Part shown: piece by piece, positions 33,194-48,944 of the stretch
Layout of the letters: the number at the start of each line of letters is the position of its first letter
Position numbering within the stretch: position 1 is the first letter of the stretch
NCBI GenBank assembly: GCA_001781025.1
Contig: MFJZ01000058.1
Coordinates: 34,583-83,526 of the forward strand
Direction: 5' to 3'
DNA length: 48,944 nt
From: Candidatus Gottesmanbacteria bacterium RIFCSPLOWO2_01_FULL_49_10
GTDB lineage: Bacteria; Patescibacteriota; Microgenomatia; UBA10105; UBA927
Made by a program: the position numbers and the translations under genes
The notes under the pieces: generated by a model
Told to the model about the DNA's origin: nothing
The model's input: the letters and a program-made list of their open reading frames with translations, nothing else
Databases searched by the model: none

Positions 33194-33198
33194 GTGAG

Positions 33199-33897: not shown

Positions 33898-34992
33898 TTA
33901 TCCGACAAAATAACCCTGAAGGTAAAGAGCTGCTCCCATGATAAAAACAGATATACTCACGAGTGCATAGACAAAATAAAATTTTCGTGACGAAAAGGAT
34001 GAAAGAATCAAAAAAAGCGGGATGGCACAGAGCATATATCGTGGTACTGACGAAAGAGTTCCCGTAAGGGCCGGGACAACCAGAACTGCCCCAGAATAAA
34101 ATAAGTACGAAGCGTCCCACCCTGCCCTCCATCCCCTGTACAACACCCACATGCCAAACAGAAAGGCGGTAAGCTCAAAAAACGCGACTGCCCAGACGGG
34201 CGAATCTGGCACAACCGTAGTCAAAATTTTCCCATAACGCCAAAGTACCTGAGGAGGAAGGACAATAGTTCCCCCGGTCCTTCCTGCGCCAAAGGCAGGT
34301 TGTGCATGAATGAATGCAATCGGGTCGCCGACAGCATACTGCAAATATATCATATACGCTACCAGTCCAAGGGGTATAAGCAATAAGGAAAGCATATGTC
34401 TCGCATGGATTCGGTAACCGTATACTTTTATATATTCATACCCCGAAATAACCAGCAAAAATACACCAAATAGTCTCGTTAGGCTTGCGAGGAACCCCAA
34501 TATCCCCGCAAGAACAAAACGGTGCTTTTTCGTGGCAAAAATAACAACAGTTGCAAATAGAAAATAAAGACTCTCAGTGTAGGTCGCAGCGAAAAAGAAG
34601 CTTGTGGGAAATACGAGAAGCAGGATGACCGCGCGAAGCGGTTTAGCCCGATCCGTCAATTTTGCTAATCGGTAAAAGACGAGAAGTCCTACAAAAAACG
34701 AGGCATTGGATATGATGAGCGCAGATAACGCGTAAGACGTGTTGGCGATGCGGGAGATAAATTGTATGATAAGTGGATACAGGGGGAAAAAAGCTTGCTC
34801 AAATTGTACATACCCGTTTTCTGCAATAGACAAATAATGGACGCCATCCATGTTTGCCCATGGCGTCGGTCCCAAAAAACCCTGTCTCAGGGAAATGATG
34901 TGCGGCGCGAGAGAGGATATTCCGATTAAAAAAAGTTTCCACAGGAGATAGATGCTGCCGATACATGCTGCGTCACGAAATAGTTGTTTCAT
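33898..34992 (-). CDS. PIG-V-like (GT76-type) membrane mannosyltransferase-family protein, GT-C
   Basis: 'WANMDGVHYLSIAENGYVQFEQAFFPLYPLIIQFISRI' matches the PIG-V family signature (D..HYL.IA..GY....AFFPLYP). Multiple TM helices are present. ATG 34992 is preferred over the GTG at 35010. Confidence 0.7.
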   Translation of the reverse strand: MKQLFRDAACIGSIYLLWKLFLIGISSLAPHIISLRQGFLGPTPWANMDGVHYLSIAENGYVQFEQAFFPLYPLIIQFISRIANTSYALSALIISNASFFVGLLVFYRLAKLTDRAKPLRAVILLLVFPTSFFFAATYTESLYFLFATVVIFATKKHRFVLAGILGFLASLTRLFGVFLLVISGYEYIKVYGYRIHARHMLSLLLIPLGLVAYMIYLQYAVGDPIAFIHAQPAFGAGRTGGTIVLPPQVLWRYGKILTTVVPDSPVWAVAFFELTAFLFGMWVLYRGWRAGWDASYLFYSGAVLVVPALTGTLSSVPRYMLCAIPLFLILSSFSSRKFYFVYALVSISVFIMGAALYLQGYFVG

Positions 34993-36025
34993 AACTTTTG
35001 ACTGTCTCACTCGCCACGCGCCTCCAGCTAAACTGTTTTACCCATTCCATGCCCTTTCGTGCGGCTTCTGATCGATCGCTCTCCCTCATGTCAATGACGG
35101 CTCTAATTTTCGTTGCGATATCTTCTATGTCTCGTGGATCTATCACAAATGAAGGACCGGCAATTTCCGCTAAACTTGCTTCTCGTGAACAAACGACCGG
35201 TGTCCCGCATGCCAATGCCTCAAGCACGGGTAATCCAAAACCCTCATAAAACGATGGCTGTACATACACGGTAGCCAGAGAATATACTGCCGGAAGATCC
35301 TCTGGCTTGATATACCCAGGATGGATAACTGCTTCTCCCATATTCATTGACGCGATAAGCTCATTGATGCGAGATACTTCTGAAATAGCCCTCTTTTGAA
35401 ATGCTTCACCCGCGAGCACCAGGAGAGTTTTCTCGTTTTTGTTTCTCCGAAGGATGGCAAATGCGCGAATCAGACCTTCGACATTTTTATTCCAATTTAC
35501 ATCGCCAACGTAAAGGATAAATCGCTCCGGCAAGTGGTACTTTGCTTTAATATTATGCAGTAATGAAGCGTTATGAATCGGATGAAAGCTCGGCGACGGA
35601 GCAAGATATATGACGTCAATCTTCATCGCTTGTATTCCCGCGATTCGTTCTATGTCTTGTCTCGAGGCTTTAGAATCCACAATGAGCCTATTGAGTCGGG
35701 ATAAACTCCATCTTTGGATGATCCACTTTACGCTCCCACGGATTCCTGCCGGAAAATGTTTCGGAAACACAAGCGGGATGAGGTCGTGCACTGTCACGAC
35801 CGTAGGTTTATCATAGAAAAGGGGCAACGTAATAAAGAATGGATCAAAATACGGGTAATGTATGAGCTCAACATCATTGGGTATCTTTTGTCCTCGAGTA
35901 AAAAAGTAATACAAATGATTGTTTTCATGCTCCTGCAACGCTTCTATCAATAATTTTGTATACATACCCACACCCCGATTCCGGTGACCGGTATGAAGTG
36001 GAGTGATATCTATGGCAATGTTCAT
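34973..36025 (-). CDS. GT4-family (GT-B) glycosyltransferase
   Basis: Contains 'MNIAIDITPLHTGHRNRGVGMYT' and 'VYVQPSFYEGFGLPVLEALACGTPVVCSREASLAEI'. Confidence 0.85.
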   Translation of the reverse strand: MNIAIDITPLHTGHRNRGVGMYTKLLIEALQEHENNHLYYFFTRGQKIPNDVELIHYPYFDPFFITLPLFYDKPTVVTVHDLIPLVFPKHFPAGIRGSVKWIIQRWSLSRLNRLIVDSKASRQDIERIAGIQAMKIDVIYLAPSPSFHPIHNASLLHNIKAKYHLPERFILYVGDVNWNKNVEGLIRAFAILRRNKNEKTLLVLAGEAFQKRAISEVSRINELIASMNMGEAVIHPGYIKPEDLPAVYSLATVYVQPSFYEGFGLPVLEALACGTPVVCSREASLAEIAGPSFVIDPRDIEDIATKIRAVIDMRESDRSEAARKGMEWVKQFSWRRVASETVKSYETTIS

Positions 36026-36036
36026 ATCTATTAATC

Positions 36037-36042: not shown

Positions 36043-36099
36043 GACGAAGAAAACAACCAAAACAAACTGCCAAAAAAATATTTGGTGACAAATACATTG

Positions 36100-36108: not shown

Positions 36109-36118
36109 ACCTCCAATT

Positions 36119-37105
36119 ATGTCACACCCTTTCCGCGAAGCCCATGTTCTCATAACTGGCGGATTAGGATTTATTGGCAGTAACCTCGCCATTGCGCTCG
36201 TCAAAAAAGGAGCAATCGTAACTATTGTTGACAACCTCACTCCCAACCAGGGCGGTAATCTGTTCAACATCAATCCCATCAAAAAAAGTGTCACTGTAGA
36301 CCACAACGATATTCGCAACGTTTCCGCTATGACGAAACTCGTAAAAGGTAAACAATATATTTTCCATTTAGCCCGGCAAACTGATCATGTATTAAGCCAA
36401 CGAGACCCGTTTCTTGATATAGACGTAAATATTCGCGGAACGACAATCATTCTTGAGGCATGCAAAAAAAACAACCAACAGGTAAAGTTTATCTATACCG
36501 GGACCCGCGGCCAATATGGCAAAGCCGTGAAGTTGCCGGTTTCCGAAGATGCACCGACAAACCCAAAAGGCATCTATGAAATCACCAATCTCGCAGCAGA
36601 AAAAATTGTCCGCGTTTACCACGATATTCATGGCATCCGCTCCGTCATGCTCCGACTCACCAATATCTATGGGCCGCGCTCACAGATGAAACATGATCGC
36701 TTTGGCGTCGTCAACTGGTTTGTCCGCCTTGCTCTCGATGGAACGCCAATCAGCGTATTCGGTGACGGGCAACTAAAAAGAGACTTTTTATATATTGACG
36801 ATACGATTGATGCCATGCTTGGAGTAGCGGCCTGCAACGAGTGTTATGGAGAAATTTTAAACATCGGTAAGGAAAAGCCGGAAACATTTCTCCACCTGGC
36901 CAAAACAATCGTACAATTATCCGAACAGGGATCGTACATGATGACCCCGTTTACCAAAGAACGCGCGATCCAAGAACCGGGACATTTCGCCAGTGATATC
37001 ACGAAAATCCATAGACTCACCGGTTGGAGTCCCACGACTACGCTCATCACCGGACTTACCAAAACGCTTACATATTACAAAAAATATAAAAAACACTACT
37101 GGTAA
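36119..37105 (+). CDS. Extended-SDR NAD-dependent epimerase/dehydratase with an atypical YxxxN catalytic segment
   Basis: Contains 'VLITGGLGFIGSNL' and 'IYTGTRGQYG'. The expected YxxxK position reads 'GIYEITNLAAEK' (tat gaa atc acc aat). Confidence 0.8.
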   Translation: MSHPFREAHVLITGGLGFIGSNLAIALVKKGAIVTIVDNLTPNQGGNLFNINPIKKSVTVDHNDIRNVSAMTKLVKGKQYIFHLARQTDHVLSQRDPFLDIDVNIRGTTIILEACKKNNQQVKFIYTGTRGQYGKAVKLPVSEDAPTNPKGIYEITNLAAEKIVRVYHDIHGIRSVMLRLTNIYGPRSQMKHDRFGVVNWFVRLALDGTPISVFGDGQLKRDFLYIDDTIDAMLGVAACNECYGEILNIGKEKPETFLHLAKTIVQLSEQGSYMMTPFTKERAIQEPGHFASDITKIHRLTGWSPTTTLITGLTKTLTYYKKYKKHYW

Positions 37106-37108
37106 ATC

Positions 37109-37798
37109 ATGAAATCCGTATCATTCCTCATCCCCGCTTATAATGATGAAGCAACTATTGCAACGCAGATTATAGAAGCCCGCTCCGTCGGCATAAAACT
37201 CGGCATTCCGTTTGAAATTATCGTAATCAATGATTGTAGCGAAGACCAAACAGCCCAAATCCTGACGAGCCTCGCCAAACGCTTCCGGGAACTGCGAGTA
37301 CTCACGCATACAGTAAACAAAGGATATGGAACAACGATCAAAGAACTCTACTATACTGCAAAAAGGGAGTGGCTCTTCACGATCCCCGGCGACTATCAGG
37401 TGCAAGCCAAAGAACTACTCAAGCTCTTACCCCACGAGAGAAGTGCGGATATGATACTCGGGTGGCGCACCAACCGGAACGATGATGGAATGAGACAATA
37501 TCAGTCACGCATCTACAATTGGATCATCCCCCTCCTCTTTGACACAAAAACTCATGATGTAAACACGGTCCGCCTGATGAGGTCGCGGATCATGAAATCA
37601 GTGATTCTTCGCGGCACATCAGCATTTACCGATGCCGAGCTTATTATTAAAGCAAAACGGCTGGGATTTACGATCAAGGAAATCCCAATCGGTCATCGAC
37701 ACAGGCACGGTGGGACAGGAACAGGTGACGGCGGAAAACTTCACGTAATACTACCCACCGTCTGGGAAATGCTGCTCCTCGTGTTTGGACACCTATAA
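37109..37798 (+). CDS. DPM1/GtrB-like family-2 glycosyltransferase (candidate polyprenyl-phosphate sugar synthase)
   Basis: Contains 'VSFLIPAYNDEATI...EIIVINDCSEDQT...NKGYGTTIKEL...IPGDYQ...GWRTNRND'. Confidence 0.8.
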   Translation: MKSVSFLIPAYNDEATIATQIIEARSVGIKLGIPFEIIVINDCSEDQTAQILTSLAKRFRELRVLTHTVNKGYGTTIKELYYTAKREWLFTIPGDYQVQAKELLKLLPHERSADMILGWRTNRNDDGMRQYQSRIYNWIIPLLFDTKTHDVNTVRLMRSRIMKSVILRGTSAFTDAELIIKAKRLGFTIKEIPIGHRHRHGGTGTGDGGKLHVILPTVWEMLLLVFGHL

Positions 37799-37804
37799 AA
37801 AGCA

Positions 37805-39376
37805 CTAATTTCTATGCTTTCGCAGCACCGGAAAACAAATCAACCACAATATACAGGCCAATGAAAATATGTCCGCGGCCAGACGAAGCGGAGTTTCACC
37901 AAAACTTACGGCTATGCTGTGATCTCCTTTGGGAACCGACACCGTAATCATCCCTTTCTCATCCGGCTGAACTGATGAGCTCTTGCCATCTATGGCTACG
38001 CGCCAACCCGGATAGTAAGCGACGTGGACACGCACCATCGCGTCAGTAGTCAAGCGGGTATCTCCTGTAAACGTCGCCACGCCCTCACGTCTCATAATAA
38101 CAGATCCGTCACCGCTAACTATTTCCATGCGTTCCTTCGGCCTATTTGGCTGCCATAACATCCAGCGTGTACTGAAAAAATTTCCCAATGACGACGTGCC
38201 GTCAGTAAATTCGCTACGTGAAAGATAGTATTGATCATCCCGGCTGGCATAGACAACAGGCTTGGTGTAAGAAAAACCTGCGGCAATGGCAAATATCACA
38301 AATGCAATAACGATGACCCTATTATGCGTCGTAGATATAGTATAGGTTGCTAAAAAGCCAGAAACTGGCATCATAAACGACAAAAGACGCCATGGGTACT
38401 GCAAAAACTGAAGTGGACGGATAATCTCCCACAAAGGTATCGACATCTCCTGCATAAGCACAAATGAAGCTAAATTGCACAGAAGAAACAGAAGTGCTAT
38501 TGACTTCATGGGGTTTTTCGGATGTTTTACCACCAAAATTACCGCTATAAGTGCGACAGCCATAGGGACGACTCCAATCTGATACGACATTTCATTAAAC
38601 ACAAAATCCTTCCCAGAAAAACCAGTTCCCCAGGAAGGAACCAGGAGCTGACTAAGGTCAGGAAAGTGATCTTTGAAATTCACGGTATTAAGCCCGACGA
38701 CAAATGACCGCTCCAGGAGTGCCGGTAACCAAAAATAGGTTGCCAATACTATTCCGATCAGTATAAAAACAAGTGCCTGTCTACTGCGAATACTCGCGTA
38801 CAGTATAAGAAACGGCAAAAAGAGTATCGACAAAATATTATGACTCACGATGATGCCACAAATACCCGCGGCTAAGAGTCGTTTATTTCCGTTCTCTATG
38901 AAAAAAAGACAGCTCATTAAAAACGCGATTGCCCAAACTTCTCCGACCGAACCACGCACAAAAATGTCGACAAACCAATACGGCACGAATGCAAAAACGA
39001 CTGATCCTGCCAAGGCGCTTCTTCTATCAAACATCTTCTGTAACCATTGGAAACAAAAGACATTCGCAACGACATAACCCGTCGCCAGGGTCAACTTGAG
39101 TGAATCAACTAAATTCCATCCCATCTGGTGGAAGAGGACGCCCACGTAATTAGGAAATGGATAAAAAAAATTAAAGAGTGGTAATCCGAACTTGCTGTTT
39201 AGGTCAGGAGCCCACCTCGGGAACCAATATCCATTCAAAAGCATTGTCCCAAATTCATGAATTCTCATGAGATGGTATTCACCATCGTGTGTCGGGATGA
39301 AACCGGAAATAAATAACCACCGTATCGCAATAACCACGAAAACCAAATGGACGAATGGATATACTTTTGTTTTCAT
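37805..39376 (-). CDS. Polytopic membrane protein of the 'PTPS-related' type (GT-C-like); paralogue of 45821..47518
   Basis: 'THDGEYHLMRIHEFGTMLLNGYWFPRWAPDLNSKFGLPLFNFFYPFPNYV' parallels 'GHDTPDHVARIASFYASLREGILVPRWAGNLNWGYGHPILMFLYPLPSYV' in the paralogue. The C-terminal module is 'YYPGWRVAIDGK...GDHSIAVSF' plus a terminal TM. The start ATG 39376 forms ATGA with the upstream stop. Confidence 0.65.
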   Translation of the reverse strand: MKTKVYPFVHLVFVVIAIRWLFISGFIPTHDGEYHLMRIHEFGTMLLNGYWFPRWAPDLNSKFGLPLFNFFYPFPNYVGVLFHQMGWNLVDSLKLTLATGYVVANVFCFQWLQKMFDRRSALAGSVVFAFVPYWFVDIFVRGSVGEVWAIAFLMSCLFFIENGNKRLLAAGICGIIVSHNILSILFLPFLILYASIRSRQALVFILIGIVLATYFWLPALLERSFVVGLNTVNFKDHFPDLSQLLVPSWGTGFSGKDFVFNEMSYQIGVVPMAVALIAVILVVKHPKNPMKSIALLFLLCNLASFVLMQEMSIPLWEIIRPLQFLQYPWRLLSFMMPVSGFLATYTISTTHNRVIVIAFVIFAIAAGFSYTKPVVYASRDDQYYLSRSEFTDGTSSLGNFFSTRWMLWQPNRPKERMEIVSGDGSVIMRREGVATFTGDTRLTTDAMVRVHVAYYPGWRVAIDGKSSSVQPDEKGMITVSVPKGDHSIAVSFGETPLRLAADIFSLACILWLICFPVLRKHRN

Positions 39377-40620
39377 GGATTGAGAGCGCGTATGCCCGTA
39401 TAATAAATCCAAAGAGAAAATACGACCCCGAGAGAAAAAACCGCGTTCGTCTTTCCTTTCATGCCAAACACGCAAAGAAGAAGGAGGGGCAGGACGATAT
39501 CAAGGCTATATCGGTAGCCAAATTGCATCCATCCGGTGCTATATAAAAATAGACTTGGTGACATCGTAGCGACCGACGCAAACCACAATGATAACCTATA
39601 CGGATCAAGAGTAAAACGCCCTCGATAGGAAAAAAATGGTTTGGCCAAGATAATGGCAAAAAACCCGGGACTCAGAAAAAAAATTGAGTTACCTTCCAGG
39701 GAAAAACGCAGCTTCACTCCGTGATCATAGATGATTGCAGGTACCTCAAAAAGGAAGTACCAGATATTATGACGCAAGTTTGTCCATGACATTATCCCCT
39801 GAGACAATCGAATAGACGCAAGGTATGGGGCTTCCTGAATATATCTATAACCATATTCAAATGGATTTTCAAATCGAAGGTAATTATAAAAGAAAAATAA
39901 GAGAGAAAACAGACCCAAAGGAAGACCAAATATCACGATACCCCGCACGACAACGCGCTTAAAAGAAGATATCGACCATCCTTTAGTATGCACATATTGA
40001 ACCAGATACAATACCGCCGGTATACTCACGAGTAACACCATCGTCGCTCGACCCAAAAGGGTTATAGAAAAAAGACCGACGGAAAGGAGATAGTCCAGAG
40101 TTTTCCGTTTCTTTTTGAATATCACTGCGATCCCAAGTATGCTAAACGTCGTCGTCACCATCTGGTCCACATGCCAGGAACTCCCGAGGGTCCCGACATA
40201 AAACTGTGCAGTGCCAAATGCAAAAAAGGTAAGAAATACGAAAATGTCAAAGAGGGACATTTCGGGAAAAAATTCTCTTCGTATGCGAAGAAGCAGAACA
40301 GAGACGACGAGGACATTGATACTCGCAAAAAGAACAGTCAGGTAAATAGCTGGGACATATCTACCGGCCGCAACCTGCATAGGTATAAGAAACATTGCTG
40401 CCAAAATCCCCCAGGGGGCATACCAGCGGCCTTTGTAGAAGATAAGGTCGTATCGACTTGACGGATCTGGTATATCTAAACGAAACGAGGATAATGCTTT
40501 GGCCAACGGATTTAAATGATCCAGCTCCCATCGGGGAATATACGTAAACTTCGTCGCGACCCCCAAATATACTATAAAAACAAACAGAAATAATGCTGCC
40601 CCAATGATTGTTCGTCTCAT
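39373..40620 (-). CDS. Polytopic membrane protein (415 aa), GT-C-like but family unassigned
   Basis: The first loop after TM1 is 'DIPDPSSRYDLIFYKGRWYAPWGILAAMFLIP'. About 11 hydrophobic segments are visible by eye. There are ATGA overlaps at both ends (39373-39376 and 40617-40620). Confidence 0.5.
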   Translation of the reverse strand: MRRTIIGAALFLFVFIVYLGVATKFTYIPRWELDHLNPLAKALSSFRLDIPDPSSRYDLIFYKGRWYAPWGILAAMFLIPMQVAAGRYVPAIYLTVLFASINVLVVSVLLLRIRREFFPEMSLFDIFVFLTFFAFGTAQFYVGTLGSSWHVDQMVTTTFSILGIAVIFKKKRKTLDYLLSVGLFSITLLGRATMVLLVSIPAVLYLVQYVHTKGWSISSFKRVVVRGIVIFGLPLGLFSLLFFFYNYLRFENPFEYGYRYIQEAPYLASIRLSQGIMSWTNLRHNIWYFLFEVPAIIYDHGVKLRFSLEGNSIFFLSPGFFAIILAKPFFSYRGRFTLDPYRLSLWFASVATMSPSLFLYSTGWMQFGYRYSLDIVLPLLLLCVFGMKGKTNAVFSLGVVFSLWIYYTGIRALNP

Positions 40621-42233
40621 AGTTTGTATACGATGACGTGAGCGTCTCGGTAAACGACGGACAAGGTATTCTCCAATACTGTTTTACTCCCTAGAGAAAA
40701 TAAGCCCTGTCCAGGATCAGTAGAAACTGCGATGTAATCAATCTTTTCTTGCCTCATTTTGCCCAGAATTACTGCGTCGTTAGCTTGGGAGAAAAGGGCT
40801 ATATTTTTCTCCCGAACGCTAGTATTGTATCCCATGACGGATGTGTAATATGAATGACCGAGATAGTTTTTTCGGCCGGCCATTGTCACCGGGTCATACA
40901 ATTCCTGATGCGCGAGAAATATAGAATCGGGGTCTGTCTGGGTTTTAATCCATTGAATGAATGGCTGCGATGAAGCGTCGAAAACATACCATTGGAAATC
41001 GTTTTTCACTGCCATGAGATTTAATATTCCAGAAGCAATAAGAAGGAATACCGTCATGGCGGTCGTTAATTTCCAATATGTGTTATGAGCCCATAGCAAA
41101 ACCAGAAGACGTGCAAGGTAAAAATTTGATAACACGAGAAAGTAGTTAATGAGAGAATGATTGTGCTCTATCCGAAAACTAAATTGAAAAATATTTGCCA
41201 GAATAAACAGGGCCAAGAACGAAAAAAAGAATAGTCGCTGGCCACTCCTTACTATATAGACCGCAATGGGAAGTAAAAGTATGGCAATTCCCAAATTCCA
41301 GCCCCAGTATGAGGTAAATCCCACCAAGGACAACGGTCTTGGGCTTAAAAAGCCGGGATTGAACCATGCATTGCGAACCAGTTCCGGGCGTTCCCCTATA
41401 ATCTGGATCATGTGGAACCCGGAAAAAATAAGCACAGAAACCAGGAGTATCGACAGCTCTTTAAGACGCTTAAGCCAAGTAAACAGAAAAACTAAAATTA
41501 CCACTGTTCCAAAAAAGATAAGACCATGAACCCTCGAAGACAATCCCAGGACAAAACCAGTAAGAAGTAGTTCCTTCACAGAGAGCCTCTCATGCTGCAA
41601 AAGCCTGGGCACAAGTCTATACAGAATACCCAACGCCAGAGCCAACCCAACAATAAGATGTCTCTGGTTGAGATATGGCGCAAGAGTAAAATAAATAGAT
41701 ATCAGAGATCCGTCAAATGGCCCTTTATGTATATAATCAGGAAGGTACCACAGATCGTGAAAGAGCAAAAAAGAAATTGGTCTGGTCCGGAAGAACTCGA
41801 TAAACGATAGCGTGCTCGGAAAAATGAACAACAACACGGACAACATACCCAGCAGAACACTTTTCCCGAATAATCGCTGCGGGAACAGATAAAGAAGAAA
41901 CAAAAGGATGGCAAACGCTATAGCACTTATTCCATTGTATGCGATGTCAATTCTCACTCCGACTTTTTCTAGAAATCCGGTCAACATGTCAACCCTGTAG
42001 TGATATAGCAGCCCTTTGCCCGGAAAAAACGGTGACTGAGGATTTAGATAATTTTTCCCCCATGAAAACGACCGAATAAGAGATATGTGGAGACCAAAAT
42101 CTCCGACCTCGTGTCGCGCGACGCGAAATTGGTGCAGGCGTACGTCGTACCCGAAGGATTTTGCCATAAGCCACCAGGAAAAAATGAAAAACAACATGAA
42201 CAACAGCACGTTAAAGCTTTTTGAGAATGGCAT
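40617..42233 (-). CDS. Polytopic membrane protein (538 aa) with a C-terminal soluble domain, family unassigned (GT-C-like architecture)
   Basis: After TM1 comes 'HEVGDFGLHISLIRSFSWGKNYLNPQSPFFPGKGLLYHY'. Many hydrophobic helices extend to about aa 400. A roughly 130-aa hydrophilic C-terminus follows ('FDASSQPFIQWIKTQTDPDSIFLAH...'). Confidence 0.5.
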   Translation of the reverse strand: MPFSKSFNVLLFMLFFIFSWWLMAKSFGYDVRLHQFRVARHEVGDFGLHISLIRSFSWGKNYLNPQSPFFPGKGLLYHYRVDMLTGFLEKVGVRIDIAYNGISAIAFAILLFLLYLFPQRLFGKSVLLGMLSVLLFIFPSTLSFIEFFRTRPISFLLFHDLWYLPDYIHKGPFDGSLISIYFTLAPYLNQRHLIVGLALALGILYRLVPRLLQHERLSVKELLLTGFVLGLSSRVHGLIFFGTVVILVFLFTWLKRLKELSILLVSVLIFSGFHMIQIIGERPELVRNAWFNPGFLSPRPLSLVGFTSYWGWNLGIAILLLPIAVYIVRSGQRLFFFSFLALFILANIFQFSFRIEHNHSLINYFLVLSNFYLARLLVLLWAHNTYWKLTTAMTVFLLIASGILNLMAVKNDFQWYVFDASSQPFIQWIKTQTDPDSIFLAHQELYDPVTMAGRKNYLGHSYYTSVMGYNTSVREKNIALFSQANDAVILGKMRQEKIDYIAVSTDPGQGLFSLGSKTVLENTLSVVYRDAHVIVYKL

Positions 42234-43329
42234 AGATACTACCTGAAAGAAACAGGGGTACTACGGTCACTATTTTTTTCACGACTGGCGTGATGCCACC
42301 CCATTCCCGGGTCCATAAAAAGGGAACGATCCGTAGTGAAAGTCCCAGGGACAACACATATGCGCCGTCCAGAACGACAATTGGACCCGGAACTAATGCG
42401 AGAAAGGTCATCGGCCAGATGAAATACCATGGATACAGTTCCTCCCGTAGGGGCGATAACAAAAAAATTACAAACATACTAACGGCTGACCATCTCCACA
42501 CAGCGTTCCAGTAAATATCGTTCTTTCTGGCTTGTTGCCACACAATCCAAACAAATACCGGAAGGAGTGCTACTGTGGCACCCTTTATCAGTATTGAACA
42601 GACGAAAATGAATGCCGACGCCAAAACGCGCCGTCGTTTCAATAAGTCAAACGCAAACAAGGCAAGAAACATCATTACGACATCGTTATGACCATCGACA
42701 AGCGTTTGTAGGATGACAAGAGGATTAAGGGCAAACCAAATAAGGTTTGTGAGTTTTTGTTGAGAATGTTTCCATAGAAACCACAACAGAAAAAGATAGA
42801 AGCCTGCAACCAAAGATTTAAATGCATACAACGTAATCAAAAGATTACCAAAACCCAACCGATACGGTATAAACGTCATGGCAATCCAGACAGGACCGTA
42901 GAGAGCAACCTTATTGGACGCATGAAGAAATGACAGCATTTGCTCGTTTCTTATGTCTATCGGCATCACGACGTACGGATTTTCCTTATAAAGGAACGTC
43001 ACCTTGGCGGTCGCGATGTAATTGAAAATATCATTAGAAAAAGCCGGAAAGGCACACACCAAACTTAGAACAGTCAGGAAAATAATCTTCCAAACAAAAC
43101 GAGCAGACACTTTTTTTTCCGAAGCGAGACCCAACAGATATCGATGGTAAACAAAAAGCACAATAAGCGTACCGACGTACCACGCTGTCGGATAAACGCG
43201 GGCAAACTGAACAAGCCGATATATTTCCCCAAAACGAGGGAATGGAGAATTTGCGTCGACGAAACCATAGGACACAAACACAAGGAGCCAAAGAACGACA
43301 AAGTAGAGGAGATGAAAAATTATAGCCAT
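42211..43329 (-). CDS. GT87/DUF2029-like polytopic membrane glycosyltransferase candidate
   Basis: 'FSNDIFNYIATAKVTFLYKENPYVVMP', 'LYGPVWI' and 'LNPLVILQTLVDGHNDVVMMFLALFAF' resemble the S.DvysY...NPY / YGP / NPL...G.ND motifs of mycobacterial-type polyprenyl-P-mannose-dependent mannosyltransferases. Confidence 0.6.
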   Translation of the reverse strand: MAIIFHLLYFVVLWLLVFVSYGFVDANSPFPRFGEIYRLVQFARVYPTAWYVGTLIVLFVYHRYLLGLASEKKVSARFVWKIIFLTVLSLVCAFPAFSNDIFNYIATAKVTFLYKENPYVVMPIDIRNEQMLSFLHASNKVALYGPVWIAMTFIPYRLGFGNLLITLYAFKSLVAGFYLFLLWFLWKHSQQKLTNLIWFALNPLVILQTLVDGHNDVVMMFLALFAFDLLKRRRVLASAFIFVCSILIKGATVALLPVFVWIVWQQARKNDIYWNAVWRWSAVSMFVIFLLSPLREELYPWYFIWPMTFLALVPGPIVVLDGAYVLSLGLSLRIVPFLWTREWGGITPVVKKIVTVVPLFLSGSIYAILKKL

Positions 43330-43343
43330 AGCAACAAGAAACC

Positions 43344-44498
43344 TTATCGAGACAGTACCTTAGTAACTACCGCGGTTATCGCTGCAACACCGATAATGAA
43401 TGTGACCGGGAGATACGGCAAGAGGAATCGGGAAGATATGACGCCGACAGATAAAAAGAGACTGTACACGATGATCCAAAAAATACATACAAGATGCGCA
43501 TAGCTTGGTCGTTGCTTTCGGATGAGAATAACCACCGCAAAGACTATCCAAACTATGGTAAAAGCCGGCCATGTCCAACGCCAGTCATCGGCATGGATAA
43601 TACTTCTGTCTCCCCACCAGGCCTGCCACTCGTTAAAAAATATAAGCCGCCAGGAAGAAAGCGGATACTGGAGTTTACTTTGTTGGTACAACAATATCCA
43701 TTTCTGAAAACCAAAAAAGTCCCACAATGAATACCCGCTCAGAAATGTCCGGAGATACGTAACAGAAAAGACCAAGAGAGATAGAGGTAAAAACATCACA
43801 AATCGCCGCGTCTTTTGCCAAACATCTTGAGACAGGAGCAGAGAAATAGAAAAACAACCCACAAGGAGTATTGCGGGAATGACCGACTTTGTTGCCATTA
43901 CAATCCCGAGAAGTATACACGTCCAGAAAAACCTTCCTCTCTTAGACTCTCGTATGAATACATAAATTGTGACGAGAATGAAAGGCAATTGAATAATATC
44001 CATAAGCGGAGTCACCTTTAGCTGATTTTCAAAAAGCGGTTCCGTCGCCATCAATAAAACCGGTAGAAGCGCAACGACGCGATCTCGTAATACTGTGAGT
44101 CCCAAGAGCCAAACAGCAACCAACGTAAAAAGCGCAAAAGGGATAGCGACGATGCGGTCGTTTTTAAACAGTGCGATAGAAAGTCCGACTATATATTTCC
44201 CCAGGGGAGTAATTTCTGAATTTATAAGAATCGGGTCTGTCCCGCGAATATACGCTCCGGATGCGTAGCCAAGTATCGTTTCATCAGGGAGAAGCGCCGT
44301 AGGCTGTTTTTGACGATACTGAGATCTTGAATACGCATCCTCTAGAAACGAATAATACGAATCGGTATAGTAGGGAGATATATACGACGCATAATTTGGT
44401 GCGATAATAACGACGAGTCGATACGCTATATATCCTGTAAAGACGAGAGACATGAGTCCCCTCGCCCAACTTCGACCGGATAAACGATGGGTATTCAT
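43344..44498 (-). CDS. PMT/GT39-like polytopic membrane glycosyltransferase candidate
   Basis: The first-loop 'LPDETILGYASGAYIRG...EITPLGKYIVGLSIALF' parallels the PMT 'DE...y...hPPLgK' motif. The start ATG 44498 forms ATGA with the upstream stop. Confidence 0.65.
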   Translation of the reverse strand: MNTHRLSGRSWARGLMSLVFTGYIAYRLVVIIAPNYASYISPYYTDSYYSFLEDAYSRSQYRQKQPTALLPDETILGYASGAYIRGTDPILINSEITPLGKYIVGLSIALFKNDRIVAIPFALFTLVAVWLLGLTVLRDRVVALLPVLLMATEPLFENQLKVTPLMDIIQLPFILVTIYVFIRESKRGRFFWTCILLGIVMATKSVIPAILLVGCFSISLLLSQDVWQKTRRFVMFLPLSLLVFSVTYLRTFLSGYSLWDFFGFQKWILLYQQSKLQYPLSSWRLIFFNEWQAWWGDRSIIHADDWRWTWPAFTIVWIVFAVVILIRKQRPSYAHLVCIFWIIVYSLFLSVGVISSRFLLPYLPVTFIIGVAAITAVVTKVLSR

Positions 44499-45037
44499 TC
44501 TATAAGTTGTAGTATATTCTGACGTATCTGTATGGACTCTTCGATATTTATTGCGATACGTAATTTTGTCGGTTTTCCTTTTTCTGGCGTCCAATCAAAT
44601 TCCACGGGTGTCGTCTTTTGGATAGACTCAAGAACTTCTCTATGCTTCTTCATTGCTTCGATAACTCTTGCCTTAATCTCTGACATGTCTTTCCCTTCTT
44701 TTATTCCTTGTCCCAGATACAGTGGAATCTGCTGTACCGCGTTATTGGATTCTTTTAGGGCGTCGGTTGCTAGAAGATACTGTTTATACTCATAGAGCGT
44801 TTTGGCTTCCACAATTTCAGAGTCAGTCAGATCGAGGTAATAGCCTAGCGATGCTATATTTCCCCAGCACCACCAACGCTTTGCCAAACGCACGAATTTC
44901 GAAATTCTATAGAATCGGTTCCCAGGCATGTAAGAGGGATACGGCAATACATAGTCACTGTAAACTCGCTGGGTACAAAGACTCATAAAAAGAATGAATA
45001 CGCTGGCTGCAATGGGAATCTTAATGTTCTGCTTCAT
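44495..45037 (-). CDS. Secreted helical protein, DUF5667-like; paralogue of 12669..13220
   Basis: The signal-like N-terminus is 'MKQNIKIPIAASVFILFMSLCTQRVYS'. It is followed by 'DYVLPYPSYMPGNRFYRISKFVRLA', which parallels 'MPYPGMLPDNSLYKLKVLRDKI'. ATG 45037 was chosen because the ORF-track extension lies inside the upstream gene. Confidence 0.55.
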   Translation of the reverse strand: MKQNIKIPIAASVFILFMSLCTQRVYSDYVLPYPSYMPGNRFYRISKFVRLAKRWWCWGNIASLGYYLDLTDSEIVEAKTLYEYKQYLLATDALKESNNAVQQIPLYLGQGIKEGKDMSEIKARVIEAMKKHREVLESIQKTTPVEFDWTPEKGKPTKLRIAINIEESIQIRQNILQLIE

Positions 45038-45824
45038 GAAATATTTTCTTGGAACCCTTGTGACGAATATGTAGATATTTTTGAAATGCAATCGGATAAT
45101 GGAGCGCGGAGAAAAGTGCAAATAATAATCCGTACCAGCCGTCGATAAAACCTTTGTGACGGACAAAAAGATTCACAAATGTCACGATCGGCAACATGAC
45201 ATTGTACTCGAGAATCGTCATCATTGTCACAAAAATGTTCTTTTGCAACAACTCATGCGCAGCAAGACTTGTGTAGGCATCTGCTTTTCTCCAATACTCC
45301 GATACTGAGCGATAGGTATTGTGAGTGAGCGGTTCATGAAGATAACCGACAGAACCGGCGATTTGTATCTGCTCATGAACGCTCTTACAGGGAAACGCTC
45401 CTTTACCGCGCTTAAACAGCCGAATGACGTAATCCGGAAATTGACCACCTTTTCTCAGCCAATGCCCGCAGAAAAAATTTTTCCTGGGTATAAAATATCC
45501 ATCACGTGTTGCTCTTTCTGTCGCCACGGTAATTGAATATATTTCTCGCTGCAACTCTCCCGATACAATCTCGTCAGCATCCAGCTGCAGAATCCATTTT
45601 CCGCTACACGCCTCAACTGCTTTTTGTTTATTCAGATGAAAAATCGGAGGATTGGGAGATGAGATGACATGCGCACCAAAACGCTTCGCGATTCCGACAG
45701 TCTTGTCCTGGGATCCGCCGTCAACGAGAATTATTTCGTCTACCCATGATGATACGCTCACAAGACAGGGAGCTATATTTTCTTCTTCGTTGTATGTTGC
45801 GATCGCCACAGATATAGTTTTCAC
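45021..45824 (-). CDS. Family-2 glycosyltransferase, WaaE/KdtX-like, with a C-terminal hydrophobic tail
   Basis: Contains 'ISVAIATYNEEENI...ILVDGGSQDKT...LQLDADE', 'GHWLRKGGQFPDYVIRLFKRGKG' and 'VHEQIQI...LHEPLTHNTYRS'. GTG 45824 forms a GTGA overlap with the upstream stop. GTG 45878 is the alternative. Confidence 0.75.
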   Translation of the reverse strand: MKTISVAIATYNEEENIAPCLVSVSSWVDEIILVDGGSQDKTVGIAKRFGAHVISSPNPPIFHLNKQKAVEACSGKWILQLDADEIVSGELQREIYSITVATERATRDGYFIPRKNFFCGHWLRKGGQFPDYVIRLFKRGKGAFPCKSVHEQIQIAGSVGYLHEPLTHNTYRSVSEYWRKADAYTSLAAHELLQKNIFVTMMTILEYNVMLPIVTFVNLFVRHKGFIDGWYGLLFALFSALHYPIAFQKYLHIRHKGSKKIFHEAEH

Positions 45825-47518
45825 GTCCTCCTCCTTTTTACTCCGACAATTACCTTTGGGAACATTCGGACCCAGCACCAGGTGAGGACAAAAAATAATA
45901 ATCCCACCAGACTCACTTGATTTGCGCGTGTTCTTAATTTGGTATCCGTAAAAGACACCATAACGCTGTGTTGACCGGGTTCAATCCAAAACGTCATGAG
46001 TCCTCGATAATCAGGATCCTGATATTGAACCTCTGTGCTATTGAGACGACTTCCGTCTATGTCTATGTTCCAACCGGGAAAATAGAGAGTATTTTCCACA
46101 ATTCTCGTTTTTGTTTTCGCGTTGATGACATAGGAGTGATGGGTGCTTTTGCGTGACCCTGGAGCTATGTTCGCGTTACCTGAAATCACCTCCGCGGGCG
46201 CGCGTGGAAAGTGCTCCATGAAACGGATTGACCATATGGGGCTACTCTCTCCCGTATCGGTAGTACCCGGATACGGCAAGTCAAATATCTTTTCATCTTT
46301 TGGGCTGTACTGCTTGGCATGCCACATCGGAATGGTCGTGACGATTGACACGAAAAGAATTACAACAACAAAACCAAGCGTGTATTTTTTGGGCAACGAT
46401 GATACTGCTATACCCCCCAAAACCGAAAGAATAAATACCGCAACAGACAAAAAACGCCAGGGAAATTGGAACTTCTGAAGGATGGTTATGGCATTCCACA
46501 ACGGCGAAGAGACACTCGTCATCATGAGTAAAATTCCAAAAAGTACTGCAAGTACAACCAGTAATAATTTTTTCCTGAGCGTATCTGTGCGAGGATGAAC
46601 TATCAATACTATCGACAAGCCTACCACAAGCAATCCAGAAATCCCGATTTCTTTCGTGAATTCGTTCCCTCCCCCCCAATTCCACGGAGACCATATAAAT
46701 GACTGCCAGGGAACAAATCGTGAAGCAAAATCACCCTTCGTCACGATATCCCGAAGCGTGTATTTGCCTTCAAGAAATGCCGGCATCCAGAAGAATGCCG
46801 AAACGAAAAAGCCAATCACCGCAAACCACCAACCGCGAACAAAAAAACCTAGTCGATCCTTGGCTTCAAAGAAAAACAAATATCCGCCGTACAGTAGTAA
46901 AAACGGCAGCATCATAAGCGACACTGCGTTGTGTGACAAAAGAAGTCCTGCAATACCCAGCCCTACCGCAAACCCGGCTGTGGCATCAGACTGACGTCCC
47001 CATGACTCCTTCAGTAGCCCCCATGCGATAAGGGGTGGAAATATGAATGCGACATGTTCGCCGATAGCGCCGCGCACGTAAAGATCAACGAACCGATATG
47101 GCGCAAAACCATAAAGAACGGCGGCGAGTGAGCCCGGTAGGGCTCCCCAGGCGGTGGATGCAAAAAGATACATCGCTAGTAAGCTTGCAATATACGAAAC
47201 CGCAAATACGAGCTTCGTGCTGTCTACGAATGAAAACCCAAGTGCATGAAAGAATGATGCGACATACGAAGGAAGCGGGTAGAGAAACATCAGGATCGGG
47301 TGCCCATATCCCCAGTTCAGGTTCCCCGCCCACCGAGGGACCAAAATGCCTTCTCTGAGAGACGCATAAAAACTGGCTATCCTTGCCACATGATCCGGAG
47401 TGTCATGACCAAGCGGTATGCCCGGGTGGAATAAATCCAATAGTGGCACGAAGGATATACTCACCAGAACAATAAGGAGCATGCGCTCAAGGTGTATTAT
47501 TTTAATCAGCTTATTCAT
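45821..47518 (-). CDS. Polytopic membrane protein of the 'PTPS-related' type (GT-C-like); paralogue of 37805..39376
   Basis: See the evidence for 37805..39376. The C-terminal module is 'LYFPGWNIDIDGSR...GQHSVMVSF' plus the terminal TM 'LVGLLFFVLTWCWV'. ATG 47518 was chosen, 4 nt after the upstream stop. Confidence 0.65.
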   Translation of the reverse strand: MNKLIKIIHLERMLLIVLVSISFVPLLDLFHPGIPLGHDTPDHVARIASFYASLREGILVPRWAGNLNWGYGHPILMFLYPLPSYVASFFHALGFSFVDSTKLVFAVSYIASLLAMYLFASTAWGALPGSLAAVLYGFAPYRFVDLYVRGAIGEHVAFIFPPLIAWGLLKESWGRQSDATAGFAVGLGIAGLLLSHNAVSLMMLPFLLLYGGYLFFFEAKDRLGFFVRGWWFAVIGFFVSAFFWMPAFLEGKYTLRDIVTKGDFASRFVPWQSFIWSPWNWGGGNEFTKEIGISGLLVVGLSIVLIVHPRTDTLRKKLLLVVLAVLFGILLMMTSVSSPLWNAITILQKFQFPWRFLSVAVFILSVLGGIAVSSLPKKYTLGFVVVILFVSIVTTIPMWHAKQYSPKDEKIFDLPYPGTTDTGESSPIWSIRFMEHFPRAPAEVISGNANIAPGSRKSTHHSYVINAKTKTRIVENTLYFPGWNIDIDGSRLNSTEVQYQDPDYRGLMTFWIEPGQHSVMVSFTDTKLRTRANQVSLVGLLFFVLTWCWVRMFPKVIVGVKRRRT

Positions 47519-47522
47519 GCGG

Positions 47523-48944
47523 TCATCGACTCGCGATACGGATCGCCTCATCGCCATTGAGATAAAAAATAGTTGCAAGCGTCGCTTGGGGGATTTCCTT
47601 GGGAGTACCGATAAAGAGTGTCTTTTCATTTTTCGTTTCACCATCCCAGTCTATCGGCCGAAACTCATATATATCAAAGCGATTTTTCCTCTCAGCAAAT
47701 CCACCGGATGCGGTACCACCCTCTGCAAGATAGCGCACGGGATCATACTTAAGGAAAAAAAGAAAAAACATGTGCGGCTGTTCGAGCCTGGTCGAAACAA
47801 CGATTCGATCATAGTCCTGCCGATGTTGCTGGGCGTATGCCGCTGCCTCTTTATACCCATACTGCCAGTACTTTGAATACTCGTGATTCATGTGACCAAA
47901 GTACATATGGAGGTAGTAGACAATATTAATCATAAAACATAAAAGAGTGAACGAGAGAATCAATGCGCCAATACCTTTTGAGTATTTTTCCTTCACGATG
48001 GAAATATAGGCTATAACCCCCGCGGCGCTAAATATTTGAAATGTCGGCAGAAAGACAAGTGTCCGTATTGCGTGGGGGAGTTCCGTGGTTGGAGATGCGG
48101 CAATCGGCGCAATGAGAAACCAAGAAAAAAGCAGTGTCCTAGCCTTATTTTTTTGTTTTCCTATCTGGTACATCCCAAACAGGAAAAACGGCAGCTCAAT
48201 AATGTATAAAAGTCCCATGTCCGGTGCGTGGTGACGAGGGTTGTCCCCAGTCAAAAATAGCCATCTCATCGAATAATGGGCGAGGTACCCGTCGACAAGC
48301 GTTTTAAACCAAACCAATCTTCTGTTGTCAAATACCAACCCCCACGCATTTCCGTCTTTACCATCTTTTTCCAGCTTGGCCACTGTTCTTGCCAGAAGCC
48401 CTGTCTGGTCTGCAAGCGAACTCGTACCGCGAAGCCTCGTAAGAGTCGACTGATTCATAAAGACAGAAAACAGCGGAAGGGCAGTGACTATCCCGACAAT
48501 TCCGCAATACAAAAAATGCCGCCGCATGACCAAAACGTGCTTTCTGTAGATAACGACAAGAAGGACAACGAGAAATGGTACAAAAATCCGCTCACTATGA
48601 TAGGCATACAACGAGAGTCCAAACAAGAATGCCGAAAAAAGAAGCATGCGTTTATTGATGAGTCCCTTAAGGAAACAGTACGTTGCAAAAATATTAAGTG
48701 CCACGCCGAGATTTGCCTCAAAGGCAATTCTTGAAAACTGTATATGCCACGGCGACAATGCCAGGAGAAGTGACGCAACCAGTGCCAGGTCTTTTCTTGA
48801 AAAAAGTTCCTTCGTTAACAGGTACGTCCCATAGACGGCGAGTATCCCAGCCAACGCCGACGGAAGTCTTACCGCCCATGTCTCCAAACCAAACAGAGCA
48901 ACAAACGGAATAGTTACATACATATAAAGTGGTGGCTTATAGTC
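47523..48944 (-). CDS. ArnT/PMT_2-like (GT39/GT83-type) polytopic glycosyltransferase; 5' end runs off the right window edge
   Basis: The reading frame stays open upstream of the track's Met. Nt 48944..48924 translate to 'DYKPPLY', then 'MYVTIPFVALFG...WAVRLPSALAGILAVYGTYLLTKELF...LALSPWHIQFSRIAFEANLG'. This is the typical ArnT-like first loop and TM2-4. Confidence 0.8.
   Translation of the reverse strand, partial: DYKPPLYMYVTIPFVALFGLETWAVRLPSALAGILAVYGTYLLTKELFSRKDLALVASLLLALSPWHIQFSRIAFEANLGVALNIFATYCFLKGLINKRMLLFSAFLFGLSLYAYHSERIFVPFLVVLLVVIYRKHVLVMRRHFLYCGIVGIVTALPLFSVFMNQSTLTRLRGTSSLADQTGLLARTVAKLEKDGKDGNAWGLVFDNRRLVWFKTLVDGYLAHYSMRWLFLTGDNPRHHAPDMGLLYIIELPFFLFGMYQIGKQKNKARTLLFSWFLIAPIAASPTTELPHAIRTLVFLPTFQIFSAAGVIAYISIVKEKYSKGIGALILSFTLLCFMINIVYYLHMYFGHMNHEYSKYWQYGYKEAAAYAQQHRQDYDRIVVSTRLEQPHMFFLFFLKYDPVRYLAEGGTASGGFAERKNRFDIYEFRPIDWDGETKNEKTLFIGTPKEIPQATLATIFYLNGDEAIRIASR

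Follow-up and report, generated by a model that had tools for sequence, protein, structure and literature searches.

Why would a bacterium from a lineage with tiny genomes keep, in one run of genes, seven membrane glycosyltransferases that scarcely resemble one another? Bacteria of the Candidate Phyla Radiation (CPR, or Patescibacteria) make up a large share of bacterial diversity, manage with tiny genomes in which many biosynthetic pathways are missing, and to our knowledge almost nothing is known about their cell envelopes. The question is raised by a stretch of 48,944 nucleotides from Candidatus Gottesmanbacteria bacterium RIFCSPLOWO2_01_FULL_49_10, an ultra-small groundwater bacterium of the Microgenomates (contig MFJZ01000058.1; the whole stretch is hereafter called the window). 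Nine minus-strand open reading frames (ORFs) lie in it between positions 37805 and 48944, and we name them g1 to g9 in the order of transcription, starting from the 48944 side. Seven are predicted to encode glycosyltransferases of the membrane-embedded C class (GT-C). We think it fairly probable that the locus is a lineage-conserved Microgenomates operon for an extracytoplasmic glycan assembly line, that is, an expanded multi-component transmembrane glycosylation system. Such an assembly line had been put forward in a preliminary description of this DNA, made without database searches, and both the identities of the GT-Cs and their genomic context support it.

GT-C families in the nine-gene run

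The assignment of seven of the nine proteins to the GT-C class, first made by eye, is borne out by hidden Markov model (HMM) families for g1, g2, g5, g6 and g9, and by Foldseek comparisons for g7 and g8. The cutoffs quoted here are the Pfam gathering thresholds and the NCBIfam equivalog cutoffs. The g1 protein matches PMT_2 (PF13231) at 1.2e-13 and 52.1 bits (cutoff 26.1), and PMT at 23.2 bits. For g2, the match to YfhO (PF09586) reaches 29.0 bits (cutoff 28.5) and that to PTPS_related (PF10131) 23.8 bits (cutoff 26.4), while g9 gives a C-terminal YfhO match of 26.3 bits (cutoff 28.5). These two proteins are 29% identical to each other (E 1e-64), and among 20 members of their common family 16 match PTPS_related (best 2e-17), 12 YfhO and 2 PMT_2. 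The g5 protein had been called PMT-like. Its family supports this, as 11 of 40 close homologues match PMT_2 at E ≤ 0.01 (best 1.3e-10), whereas g5 itself stays under the threshold and has no Pfam match; on the strength of these homologues it is best called a divergent PMT_2 relative. The sequence of g6 matches the NCBIfam model for alpha-(1->6)-mannopyranosyltransferase A (1e-9, 37.9 bits; equivalog cutoff 439) and GT87 (18.5 bits, cutoff 25), and a protein identical to g6 carries a precomputed match to the MptA_B_family (PF26314) at E ≤ 1e-5. By these matches g6 is a predicted MptA/GT87 relative and not an equivalog.

The seven candidates share further features. Hydropathy with a 19-residue window gives five hydrophobic segments in the N-terminally truncated g1 and 7-10 in the other six. 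All seven have a basic N-terminus before the first transmembrane segment (TM1), which implies that the N-terminus lies inside the cell and would therefore place the first loop, with its conserved acidic residue, outside. The acidic motif of this loop had been noticed in the single sequences, and in alignments of homologues it proved invariant or nearly so in each family. In g1 it lies in DYKPPLY at the window edge. Directly after TM1, the invariant residues of g2 are H38, D39, H43 and R46, and those of g9 after TM1 are D31 and E33; D72 of g5 is invariant and the adjacent E73 at least 90% conserved, and D100 in the SNDIFNY motif of g6 is again invariant.

The seven GT-Cs are of five families (PMT_2, YfhO/PTPS, MptA/GT87, that of g7 and that of g8), or six if g5 is set apart. 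Profile-profile comparison and BLASTP across the families recognised only g2 and g9 as paralogues, all other pairs being unrelated or marginal. Among nine membrane-protein families, the hhalign links of g1 to g5 (57% probability), g2 to g5 (42%) and g8 to a Wzx-type family encoded further along (42%) are weak. Recent duplication as the source of the GT-Cs was rejected, there being no convincing profile-profile link save that of g2 with g9. The earlier count of at least five mutually dissimilar families, with one PTPS-related pair, thus agrees with this comparison.

Neither g7 nor g8 has a sequence match in Pfam, NCBIfam or the PDB (g7 returned only a spurious DUF6798 match at E ≤ 10), and PDB sequence searches, with single sequences and with profiles, gave chance matches only for g5, g7, g8 and the g2/g9 family. 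AlphaFold2 models built on alignments of about 40 sequences reached a predicted local distance difference test (pLDDT) score of 88.9 and a predicted template modelling (pTM) score of 0.90 for g7, and 91.1 and 0.91 for g8, with 11-13 long helices. When these models were compared with the PDB by Foldseek, g7 matched DPY19 (4.6e-8), STT3 (8e-8), ArnT (1.8e-6), AftA, AglB, PglB and AftD, its top 29 matches being all GT-C-type with TM-scores of about 0.5. The matches of g8 were AglB (2.3e-3), ArnT, STT3, PglB, ALG12, Pmt2 and PIG-U, and the top 13 were all GT-C-type. Unrelated folds ranked below the GT-Cs in both cases, with a probability of at most 0.18. Sequence identity to the structural matches is 10-14%, and 12% between g7 and DPY19.

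Alignment of 37 homologues of g7 shows D45 and D82 to be invariant, and K410, N411, D412, W428, D447 and R454 to be conserved in the C-terminal part. The window protein gave no sequence match to the Dpy19 model (PF10034), and a minority of its homologues carry precomputed matches to this model or to DUF2298. We rejected the assignment of g7 to the oligosaccharyltransferases (GT66): no WWDYG-type motif is present in the consensus or among the invariant residues of the 37 homologues, and despite its fold likeness g7 should therefore not be filed with these enzymes. A large family surrounds g8: when 1.84 billion representative proteins were searched with its profile, 4336 clusters were collected at E ≤ 1e-3, of which 1720 reached E ≤ 1e-10. 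D58 of the first loop is kept in 99% of 102 aligned members, whose median identity is 24%, and W149, R191, N246, R249, Q366, R370 and D374 are also conserved. As far as the structure model indicates, g8 represents a GT-C-fold family missing from Pfam and NCBIfam, with D58 as a clear candidate for the catalytic Asp. Ten distant members carried no Pfam domain except for one C-terminal TPR fusion and one weak PIG-U match; the TPR array resembles that of TMTC-type GT-Cs. In many distant members, of 560-650 aa, about 170-250 residues without a Pfam match extend the N-terminus. Polyangiaceae, Planctomycetes and Eisenbacteria also have relatives, at 22-30% identity, which are not accompanied by the genes that flank g8 here.

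Gene order, synteny and the surrounding sugar island

The nine ORFs are present at the positions first given for them, and the head-to-tail arrangement with overlaps of 4-23 nt or gaps of at most 14 nt was reproduced. With the original start codons, the junctions from g1/g2 to g8/g9 measure +4, -4, -17, -4, +14, -23, -4 and -4 nt. The start codon of g1 lies outside the window, and its frame is open from base 48944, with DYKPPLY as its first residues. Gene callers chose other starts for g2 (553 aa), g3 (285 aa) and g7 (526 aa) on public contigs that are 100% identical; with either set of starts the spacers do not exceed about 40 nt. Upstream of the GTG start originally chosen for g3 stands AAAGGAGGAGG. 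For g7, homologue alignments favour the start of the 538-aa form, which matches them in length and N-terminus; the public record holds the 526-aa form, with a later start, and the exact 538-aa form is absent there. Spacing suggests that the nine genes are co-transcribed and translationally coupled. A scan for promoter and terminator consensus sequences was uninformative, all matches being intragenic and promoter-like sites no commoner than in shuffled sequence. The seven GT-C genes had been described as consecutive, which is not the case: the order is two GT-C genes, the glycosyltransferase family 2 (GT2) gene g3, the secreted-protein gene g4 and five GT-C genes.

The two proteins that interrupt the series were correctly recognised from the start as a GT2 and a secreted helical protein, since g3 matches Glycos_transf_2 and g4 has a signal peptide (Table 1). 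The best solved relatives of g3, which had first been likened to WaaE, are GmaR (6.7e-13) and SunS, which are protein/peptide glycosyltransferases (WaaE was not in the comparison), and its identity in syntenic loci is 47-61%. The g4 motifs DYVLPYPSYMPG and YLVEAKTLFEYKQYLL are kept in 10 syntenic homologues. As g4 is not Ser/Thr-rich, it looks like an accessory rather than an acceptor, and it is likely an extracytoplasmic accessory protein.

The gene arrangement is identical in four independent assemblies and syntenic in other genomes, which rules out an assembly chimera or artefact. Identical copies of the locus are found on several groundwater-metagenome contigs, the longest of 83 kb. Every public assembly of this organism that we examined breaks in or just before g1, probably because of tandem PMT_2 paralogues, of which related genomes have 2-4 at this point. 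The true GT-C array of this genome is probably longer than the window shows.

A search of related genomes for the nine-gene order, as had been advised, found it to recur. The annotations of homologues at 45-65% identity name Woesebacteria, Gottesmanbacteria, Levybacteria or simply "Microgenomates", and those homologues that carry a source name are all recorded as "hypothetical protein". Mapping with tblastn showed that Woesebacteria, one Gottesmanbacteria genome and a further genome from the Patescibacteria have the full order, g1 to g9 followed by a glycosyltransferase family 4 (GT4) gene, a PIG-V-like gene, GT2, Wzx and GT2, at about 45-60% identity. Woesebacteria GW2011_GWA1_41_13, for example, has PMT_2 (three to four copies), PTPS_related, GT2, 175 aa, 363 aa, MptA_B, 537 aa, 402 aa, PTPS_related, GT4, 365 aa, GT2, a 417-aa MOP-like protein, GT2, GT4 and PMT_2. 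Levybacteria have a reduced block without g5, the PIG-V-like gene and one GT2, and one copy of it lies in a complete chromosome of 762 kb. Conservation of this order at 45-60% identity argues for one functional unit under selection. The same order, at 45-52% identity, is also found in several third-party-annotation metagenome-assembled genomes labelled "uncultured Gammaproteobacteria bacterium"; judged by these sequences, the organism labels look wrong.

The coordinates of the nine-gene run hold, but the functional unit that they were meant to delimit reaches further, to about position 31138. Between the 3' ends of g9 and of a convergent plus-strand gene there are 6 nt, and the run therefore ends at g9 in this organism. 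The convergent gene belongs to a pair (36119-37798) that is absent at this position in four syntenic loci, where the GT4 gene directly follows g9; the pair looks like a lineage-specific insertion that may add one lipid-linked sugar donor. Beyond it, the GT4 has as its best NCBIfam models, each below its cutoff, MSMEG_0565, MshA, GlcN-PG synthase and the glycolipid synthases IagA/BgsA, Dgs and Mgs. The PIG-V-like protein, the eighth GT-C of the window, has an invariant first-loop D55, and its gene is syntenic in five loci. The GT2 that follows it matches the NCBIfam models AglJ (4e-35), PpgS (2.5e-19) and ArnC (3.9e-19) and, over the whole catalytic domain, the PDB structures of ArnC (7.5e-17) and the Pyrococcus Dol-P-Man synthase (1e-14); its identity in syntenic loci is 66-74%. 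The second GT2, which closes the block, matches PpgS (4.7e-13) and ArnC (1.2e-10) and is 52-75% identical in syntenic loci. Of the GT2s in the window, four have their closest matches in ArnC, Dol-P-Man synthase, AglJ and PpgS, and AglJ, which belongs to archaeal surface-layer (S-layer) N-glycosylation, is the best NCBIfam model for two GT2s. Between the two GT2 genes lies that of a 441-aa polytopic protein. We considered it as a GT-C, a reading ruled out by Wzx-type flippase family matches: among nine syntenic homologues, six match Polysacc_synt_3 (best 4e-17) and five Polysacc_synt, and the best PDB relative by profile is PfMATE (8.5e-4). A single locus is thus predicted from sequence to hold GT2s resembling polyprenyl-phosphate-sugar synthases, a flippase and GT-Cs. 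Family scans of the window ORFs detected no flippase of the GtrA/GtcA type, and ORFs of at least 120 aa gave no Pfam match to Bac_transf, Glycos_transf_4 (MraY/WecA) or Wzy/O-antigen ligase; other parts of the genome could contain such genes.

The rest of the window (positions 1-31100) is a large sugar-biosynthesis island with three DegT aminotransferases, several 4,6-dehydratases/epimerases and more GT2 and GT4 enzymes. The enzymes of Table 1 suggest that the building blocks may be unusual formylated, aminated or C-methylated deoxysugars. A protein with a transketolase N-terminal domain (651-1571, minus strand), at the island's edge, points to a split transketolase, which may act in a branched- or keto-sugar pathway rather than in central metabolism. 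The earlier total of ten GT-Cs in the window is not supported; we find support for eight, the 441-aa protein being a flippase. Neither fold nor family matches classed the membrane parts of two large island proteins, of 876 aa and 1144 aa, as GT-C or otherwise. The architecture of the 876-aa protein recalls large GT-Cs with outside lectin domains. The gene of the 1144-aa protein overlaps by 4 nt that of a 124-aa membrane protein, which could be a candidate GtrA-like flippase or GT2 activator. Three DUF5667-type segments occur in the 49-kb window, at 12633-13220 (plus strand), in g4 and in the 1144-aa protein, and only the first of them lies above the Pfam cutoff (41.7 bits against 27). DUF5667 has no described function that we know of, and it is unmentioned in the open-access literature that we searched.

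Table 1. Predicted features of the window, from the nine-gene run to the sugar island
Feature	Position	Strand	Prediction	Evidence
g1	47523..48944	-	ArnT/PMT_2-type GT-C, N-terminus beyond window end, soluble C-terminal domain	Pfam PMT_2
g2	45821..47518	-	YfhO/PTPS_related-type GT-C, paralogue of g9	Pfam and family matches
g3	45021..45824	-	Soluble GT2 (GT-A fold), hydrophobic C-terminal region	Glycos_transf_2 1.4e-17
g4	44495..45037	-	Secreted, DUF5667-like helical protein with signal peptide	DUF5667 4e-4 (below cutoff)
g5	43344..44498	-	Short divergent PMT_2-type GT-C, 384 aa, without large soluble domain	Family matches
g6	42211..43329	-	MptA/MptB (GT87)-like GT-C	NCBIfam MptA model, PF26314
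g7	40617..42233	-	GT-C of ArnT/STT3/DPY19 structural class, alpha/beta C-terminal domain	AlphaFold2 and Foldseek
g8	39373..40620	-	GT-C-fold protein of large family without Pfam/NCBIfam model	AlphaFold2 and Foldseek
g9	37805..39376	-	Second YfhO/PTPS_related-type GT-C, last of nine-gene run	Paralogy to g2, Pfam family counts
GT2	37109..37798	+	ArnC-like GT2	Pfam and NCBIfam
Dehydratase/epimerase	36119..37105	+	NDP-sugar 4,6-dehydratase/epimerase	Pfam and NCBIfam
GT4	34973..36025	-	Cytoplasmic GT4 (GT-B) glycosyltransferase	Glycos_transf_1 3e-35
PIG-V-like	33898..35010	-	PIG-V-like GT-C, eighth of window	Pfam Mannosyl_trans2 (PIG-V) 8.3e-9, 35.7 bits vs cutoff 22.4
GT2	33199..33885	-	Polyprenyl-phosphate-sugar synthase type (ArnC/DPM1/AglJ/PpgS-like), without transmembrane helices	NCBIfam, PDB
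Flippase	31931..33256	-	Wzx-type MOP-family flippase, 441 aa	Family Pfam matches
GT2	31138..31941	-	Second ArnC/PpgS-like GT2, last gene of Microgenomates-conserved block	Glycos_transf_2 1.2e-21
876-aa protein	24576-27206	-	Polytopic N-terminal domain, F5/8 type C (CBM32-like) domain at residues 625-721	
1144-aa protein	14567-18001	-	Polytopic N-terminal half, internal DUF5667-like segment, C-terminal transmembrane helix	
124-aa protein	14196-14570	-	Small membrane protein, 3-4 hydrophobic segments, no family match	
Radical-SAM	11166-12626		B12-binding radical-SAM enzyme	
RmlC/RmlD	9736-11141		RmlC/RmlD	
Methyltransferase	8507-9739		Sugar C-methyltransferase	
Formyltransferase	2497-3303		N-formyltransferase	

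A proposed route of glycan assembly and its alternatives

How could these components work together? In the scheme that we favour, GT2s of the ArnC/DPM1 type would load nucleotide sugars, supplied by the NDP-sugar-modifying enzymes in the rest of the window, onto polyprenyl monophosphate at the cytoplasmic face, and the GT4 and GT2 enzymes may extend one lipid-linked primer. The Wzx-type flippase, possibly with further flippases, would then carry the lipid-linked sugars to the outer face. There, eight or more GT-Cs (two or more PMT_2 enzymes, the two YfhO/PTPS proteins, the MptA-like enzyme, the DPY19/STT3/ArnT-like g7, g8 and the PIG-V-like enzyme) would add, branch, polymerise or finally transfer sugars onto a surface acceptor, with the conserved Asp/Glu of the first outside loop as the presumed catalytic residue, and the small secreted g4 may be an accessory for acceptor handling. 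From the presence of ArnC/DPM1-like GT2s and a Wzx-type protein in the block, we infer that the GT-Cs use polyprenyl-phosphate-sugar donors. The acceptor would most likely be a non-protein envelope glycopolymer or lipoglycan. This lean towards a lipid or polymer comes from the MptA-like and PIG-V-like enzymes and from the GT4 with its glycolipid-anchor synthase models, and it is a weak one because those matches all lie below equivalog cutoffs.

Several points weigh against an assembly line of this kind. The fold of g2, g5, g6 and g9 is based on HMM membership, partly below curated cutoffs, and that of g1 comes likewise from HMMs, only g7 and g8 being placed by structure models; the Foldseek E-values of g8 are modest (2e-3, with TM-scores of 0.37-0.50). 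The GT-C fold is also seen in PIG-U, which is non-catalytic. As the family matches of the GT4 and GT2 enzymes are all below equivalog cutoffs, neither the sugars nor the acceptors can be named. The convergent pair separates g9 from the downstream genes, from GT4 to the last GT2, which are therefore not on the same transcript in this organism. Finally, a protein acceptor would be just as compatible with the PMT_2 enzymes and with g3, given its likeness to GmaR and SunS.

The last point belongs to the alternative that survives best, a serious rival although we consider it unlikely. The locus would be a protein-glycosylation machine: secreted, S-layer or pilin proteins would be O-glycosylated by the PMT_2 paralogues, g7 would pass a sugar or an oligosaccharide to protein, the remaining GT-Cs would lengthen the protein-linked glycan outside the cell, and g3 would act in the cytoplasm on a protein or peptide. 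The PMT_2 and PMT matches of g1 and of the g5 family are consistent with this; however, PMT_2 also holds the lipid or polymer modifiers ArnT and GtlB (PMC8035078). The best structural matches of g7, DPY19 and STT3, modify proteins, but ArnT and AftA, which have lipid or glycan acceptors, score nearly as well, and neither the consensus nor the invariant residues of the g7 family alignment include a WWDYG-type motif in the C-terminal domain. GmaR and SunS act on protein or peptide, and the AglJ matches of the two GT2s point in the same direction, whereas MptA-like and PIG-V-like enzymes work on glycolipids, and the operon has no obvious gene for a Ser/Thr-rich acceptor, g4 included.

A further alternative, to which we give somewhat less credit than to protein glycosylation, is that the block is a toolbox whose decoration systems are independent of one another. 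In each of them one GT-C and its matching polyprenyl-phosphate-sugar synthase would add a single side-chain sugar to one or more existing envelope polymers, as in CsbB/YfhO, GtlA/GtlB and GacI/GacL. The four to five ArnC-like GT2s of the window would roughly match several donor types, and those YfhO and PMT_2 GT-Cs that have been characterised each decorate with a single sugar (PMC8035078). Variable content between lineages, such as the reduced block of Levybacteria, is also expected of modular decorations. On the other hand, the core of g6-g7-g8-g9 and g2-g3-g4 is kept in fixed order, with overlapping frames, between lineages that are 45-60% identical, which is more typical of a pathway or complex, and the Wzx flippase and the GT4s imply a lipid-linked oligosaccharide and not monosaccharide donors alone.

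A more specific version of the assembly line seems to us doubtful, and more so than either of these alternatives. Here GT2 and GT4 enzymes would build a primer on polyprenyl monophosphate, which would be flipped by Wzx, extended outside the cell by five to eight unrelated GT-Cs and transferred en bloc by g7 to a surface protein or the wall. If true, such stepwise assembly in the style of the endoplasmic reticulum (ER) lumen would make the glycoconjugate a major lineage-defining envelope component of episymbiont-like bacteria with genomes below 1 Mb, and the locus would be a bacterial counterpart of ER-lumen glycan assembly, all in one operon and including the previously unrecognised GT-C family of g8. 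As to the idea that several of the polytopic proteins are not glycosyltransferases but PIG-U-like scaffolds, Wzy/WaaL-type polymerases or ligases acting on polyprenyl-diphosphate glycans, or transporters, it could draw on g8 matching PIG-U about as well as some catalytic GT-Cs, on the weak PIG-U and Wzx-family matches of the g8 family and on the lack of a Pfam match in g5, g7 and g8 themselves, but we set it aside as very improbable, since transporter folds come far lower in the ranking than GT-Cs, the matches listed include no WaaL, Wzy or SEDS structure, first-loop acidic residues are invariant in every family, and in g8 the conserved Asp is accompanied by conserved Arg, Asn and Gln.

The lineage keeps under purifying selection a block of about 17 kb (31138-48944) with eight or more predicted GT-Cs, putative donor synthases and a flippase. 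Such a block, inside a 49-kb sugar island where a related chromosome measures 762 kb, suggests that a complex surface glycoconjugate is central to the biology of these bacteria, and it would probably serve in attachment, host interaction or phage defence. The array also offers a compact natural test bed for cooperation among GT-C families.

Comparison with known glycosylation systems

Is there a characterised system of this kind? None was known to the preliminary description, and full-text searches, which covered open-access literature only, likewise yielded no paper describing the locus and no relevant paper on GT-C arrays in CPR bacteria or Microgenomates. The general logic is that of multi-component transmembrane glycosylation, in which the product of a GT2, a polyprenyl-monophosphate sugar, crosses the membrane by means of a GtrA- or Wzx-type flippase and is used by a GT-C for sugar transfer on the outside (PMC8035078). 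Small GT-Cs are anticipated to need partner proteins for acceptor recognition (PMC8035078), which fits g4 as an accessory.

The nearest parallels in ArnC-ArnT lipid A modification are ArnC itself, the best solved relative of one GT2, the ArnT/PMT_2-like g1, and ArnT as one of the top structural matches of g7 and g8. That system has one GT-C where the present locus has many, and no ArnA/B/D/E/F set was found as such in the window. CPR Microgenomates are not known to make lipid A.

Gram-positive bacteria offer closer models. CsbB-GtcA-YfhO, GtlA-GtlB, GacI/J-GacK-GacL and WpsA/B-WpsG-WpsH-WpsJ combine GT2, flippase and GT-C in the same way, with YfhO- or PMT_2-type GT-Cs, and in the Gac and Wps systems the flippase is of the Wzx type. 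In the lactococcal polysaccharide pellicle pathway, the GT2 WpsA/B builds the repeat unit on C55-P, the Wzx protein WpsG flips it, the GT-C WpsH polymerises it and the GT-C WpsJ attaches it (PMC10821137). A pathway of this type needs no phosphoglycosyl transferase because it builds on C55-P, and the locus studied here, in which neither a phosphoglycosyl transferase nor a Wzy protein was detected, matches such polyprenyl-monophosphate systems, and the lactococcal pathway particularly closely. In contrast, the Gram-positive loci have one or two GT-Cs, compared with seven in the operon and eight or more in the block here, of five to six families. The MptA-like, PIG-V-like, DPY19/STT3-like and g8 families are not known from Gram-positive wall decoration, and the GT2s of the window have no transmembrane segments and no detected GtrA/GtcA-type partner.

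In mycobacteria and corynebacteria, the synthesis of lipomannan, lipoarabinomannan and arabinogalactan (PimE, MptA/B/C, EmbC/A/B, AftA-D and Ppm1) likewise relies on GT-Cs acting in series outside the membrane with polyprenyl-phosphate-sugar donors, and it shares with the present locus an MptA/B-type enzyme and priming by a GT4 on the cytoplasmic side. Mycobacterium tuberculosis has about 15 GT-Cs overall, and embCAB is a tandem trio of them (PMC2610374). The trio shows that it was an overstatement to call the mycobacterial GT-Cs dispersed or to count one GT-C per locus in characterised systems, the more so as the lactococcal cluster contains two, WpsH and WpsJ (PMC10821137). The window gave no Emb or Aft sequence families, no decaprenyl-phosphoryl-arabinose pathway genes and no phosphatidylinositol pathway. 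Most of the mycobacterial genes are spread across a 4.4-Mb genome, and the tandem members are close paralogues, whereas here unrelated GT-Cs lie in one putative operon, in a lineage with a complete chromosome of 762 kb.

Eukaryotic assembly in the ER (ALG3/9/12/6/8/10, DPM1/ALG5, Rft1 and OST-STT3) and glycosylphosphatidylinositol synthesis (PIG-V/M/B/Z) differ from the locus in that the likeness is one of fold and pathway logic only, with 10-14% identity and no WWDYG-type motif in g7, and no GlcNAc-1-P transferase was found in the window. What they have in common with it is GT4-type steps, an MOP flippase, GT2s of the Dol-P-sugar type, a PIG-V member and different GT-Cs in series across the membrane, g7 and g8 being structurally near STT3, DPY19 and ALG12. 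Taken with the bacterial systems, the comparison sets the locus apart: earlier loci with multiple GT-Cs involve one or two families or close paralogues, while here unrelated families stand together in one putative operon, kept throughout a lineage with very small genomes, which is the densest and most family-diverse GT-C array that we could find described.

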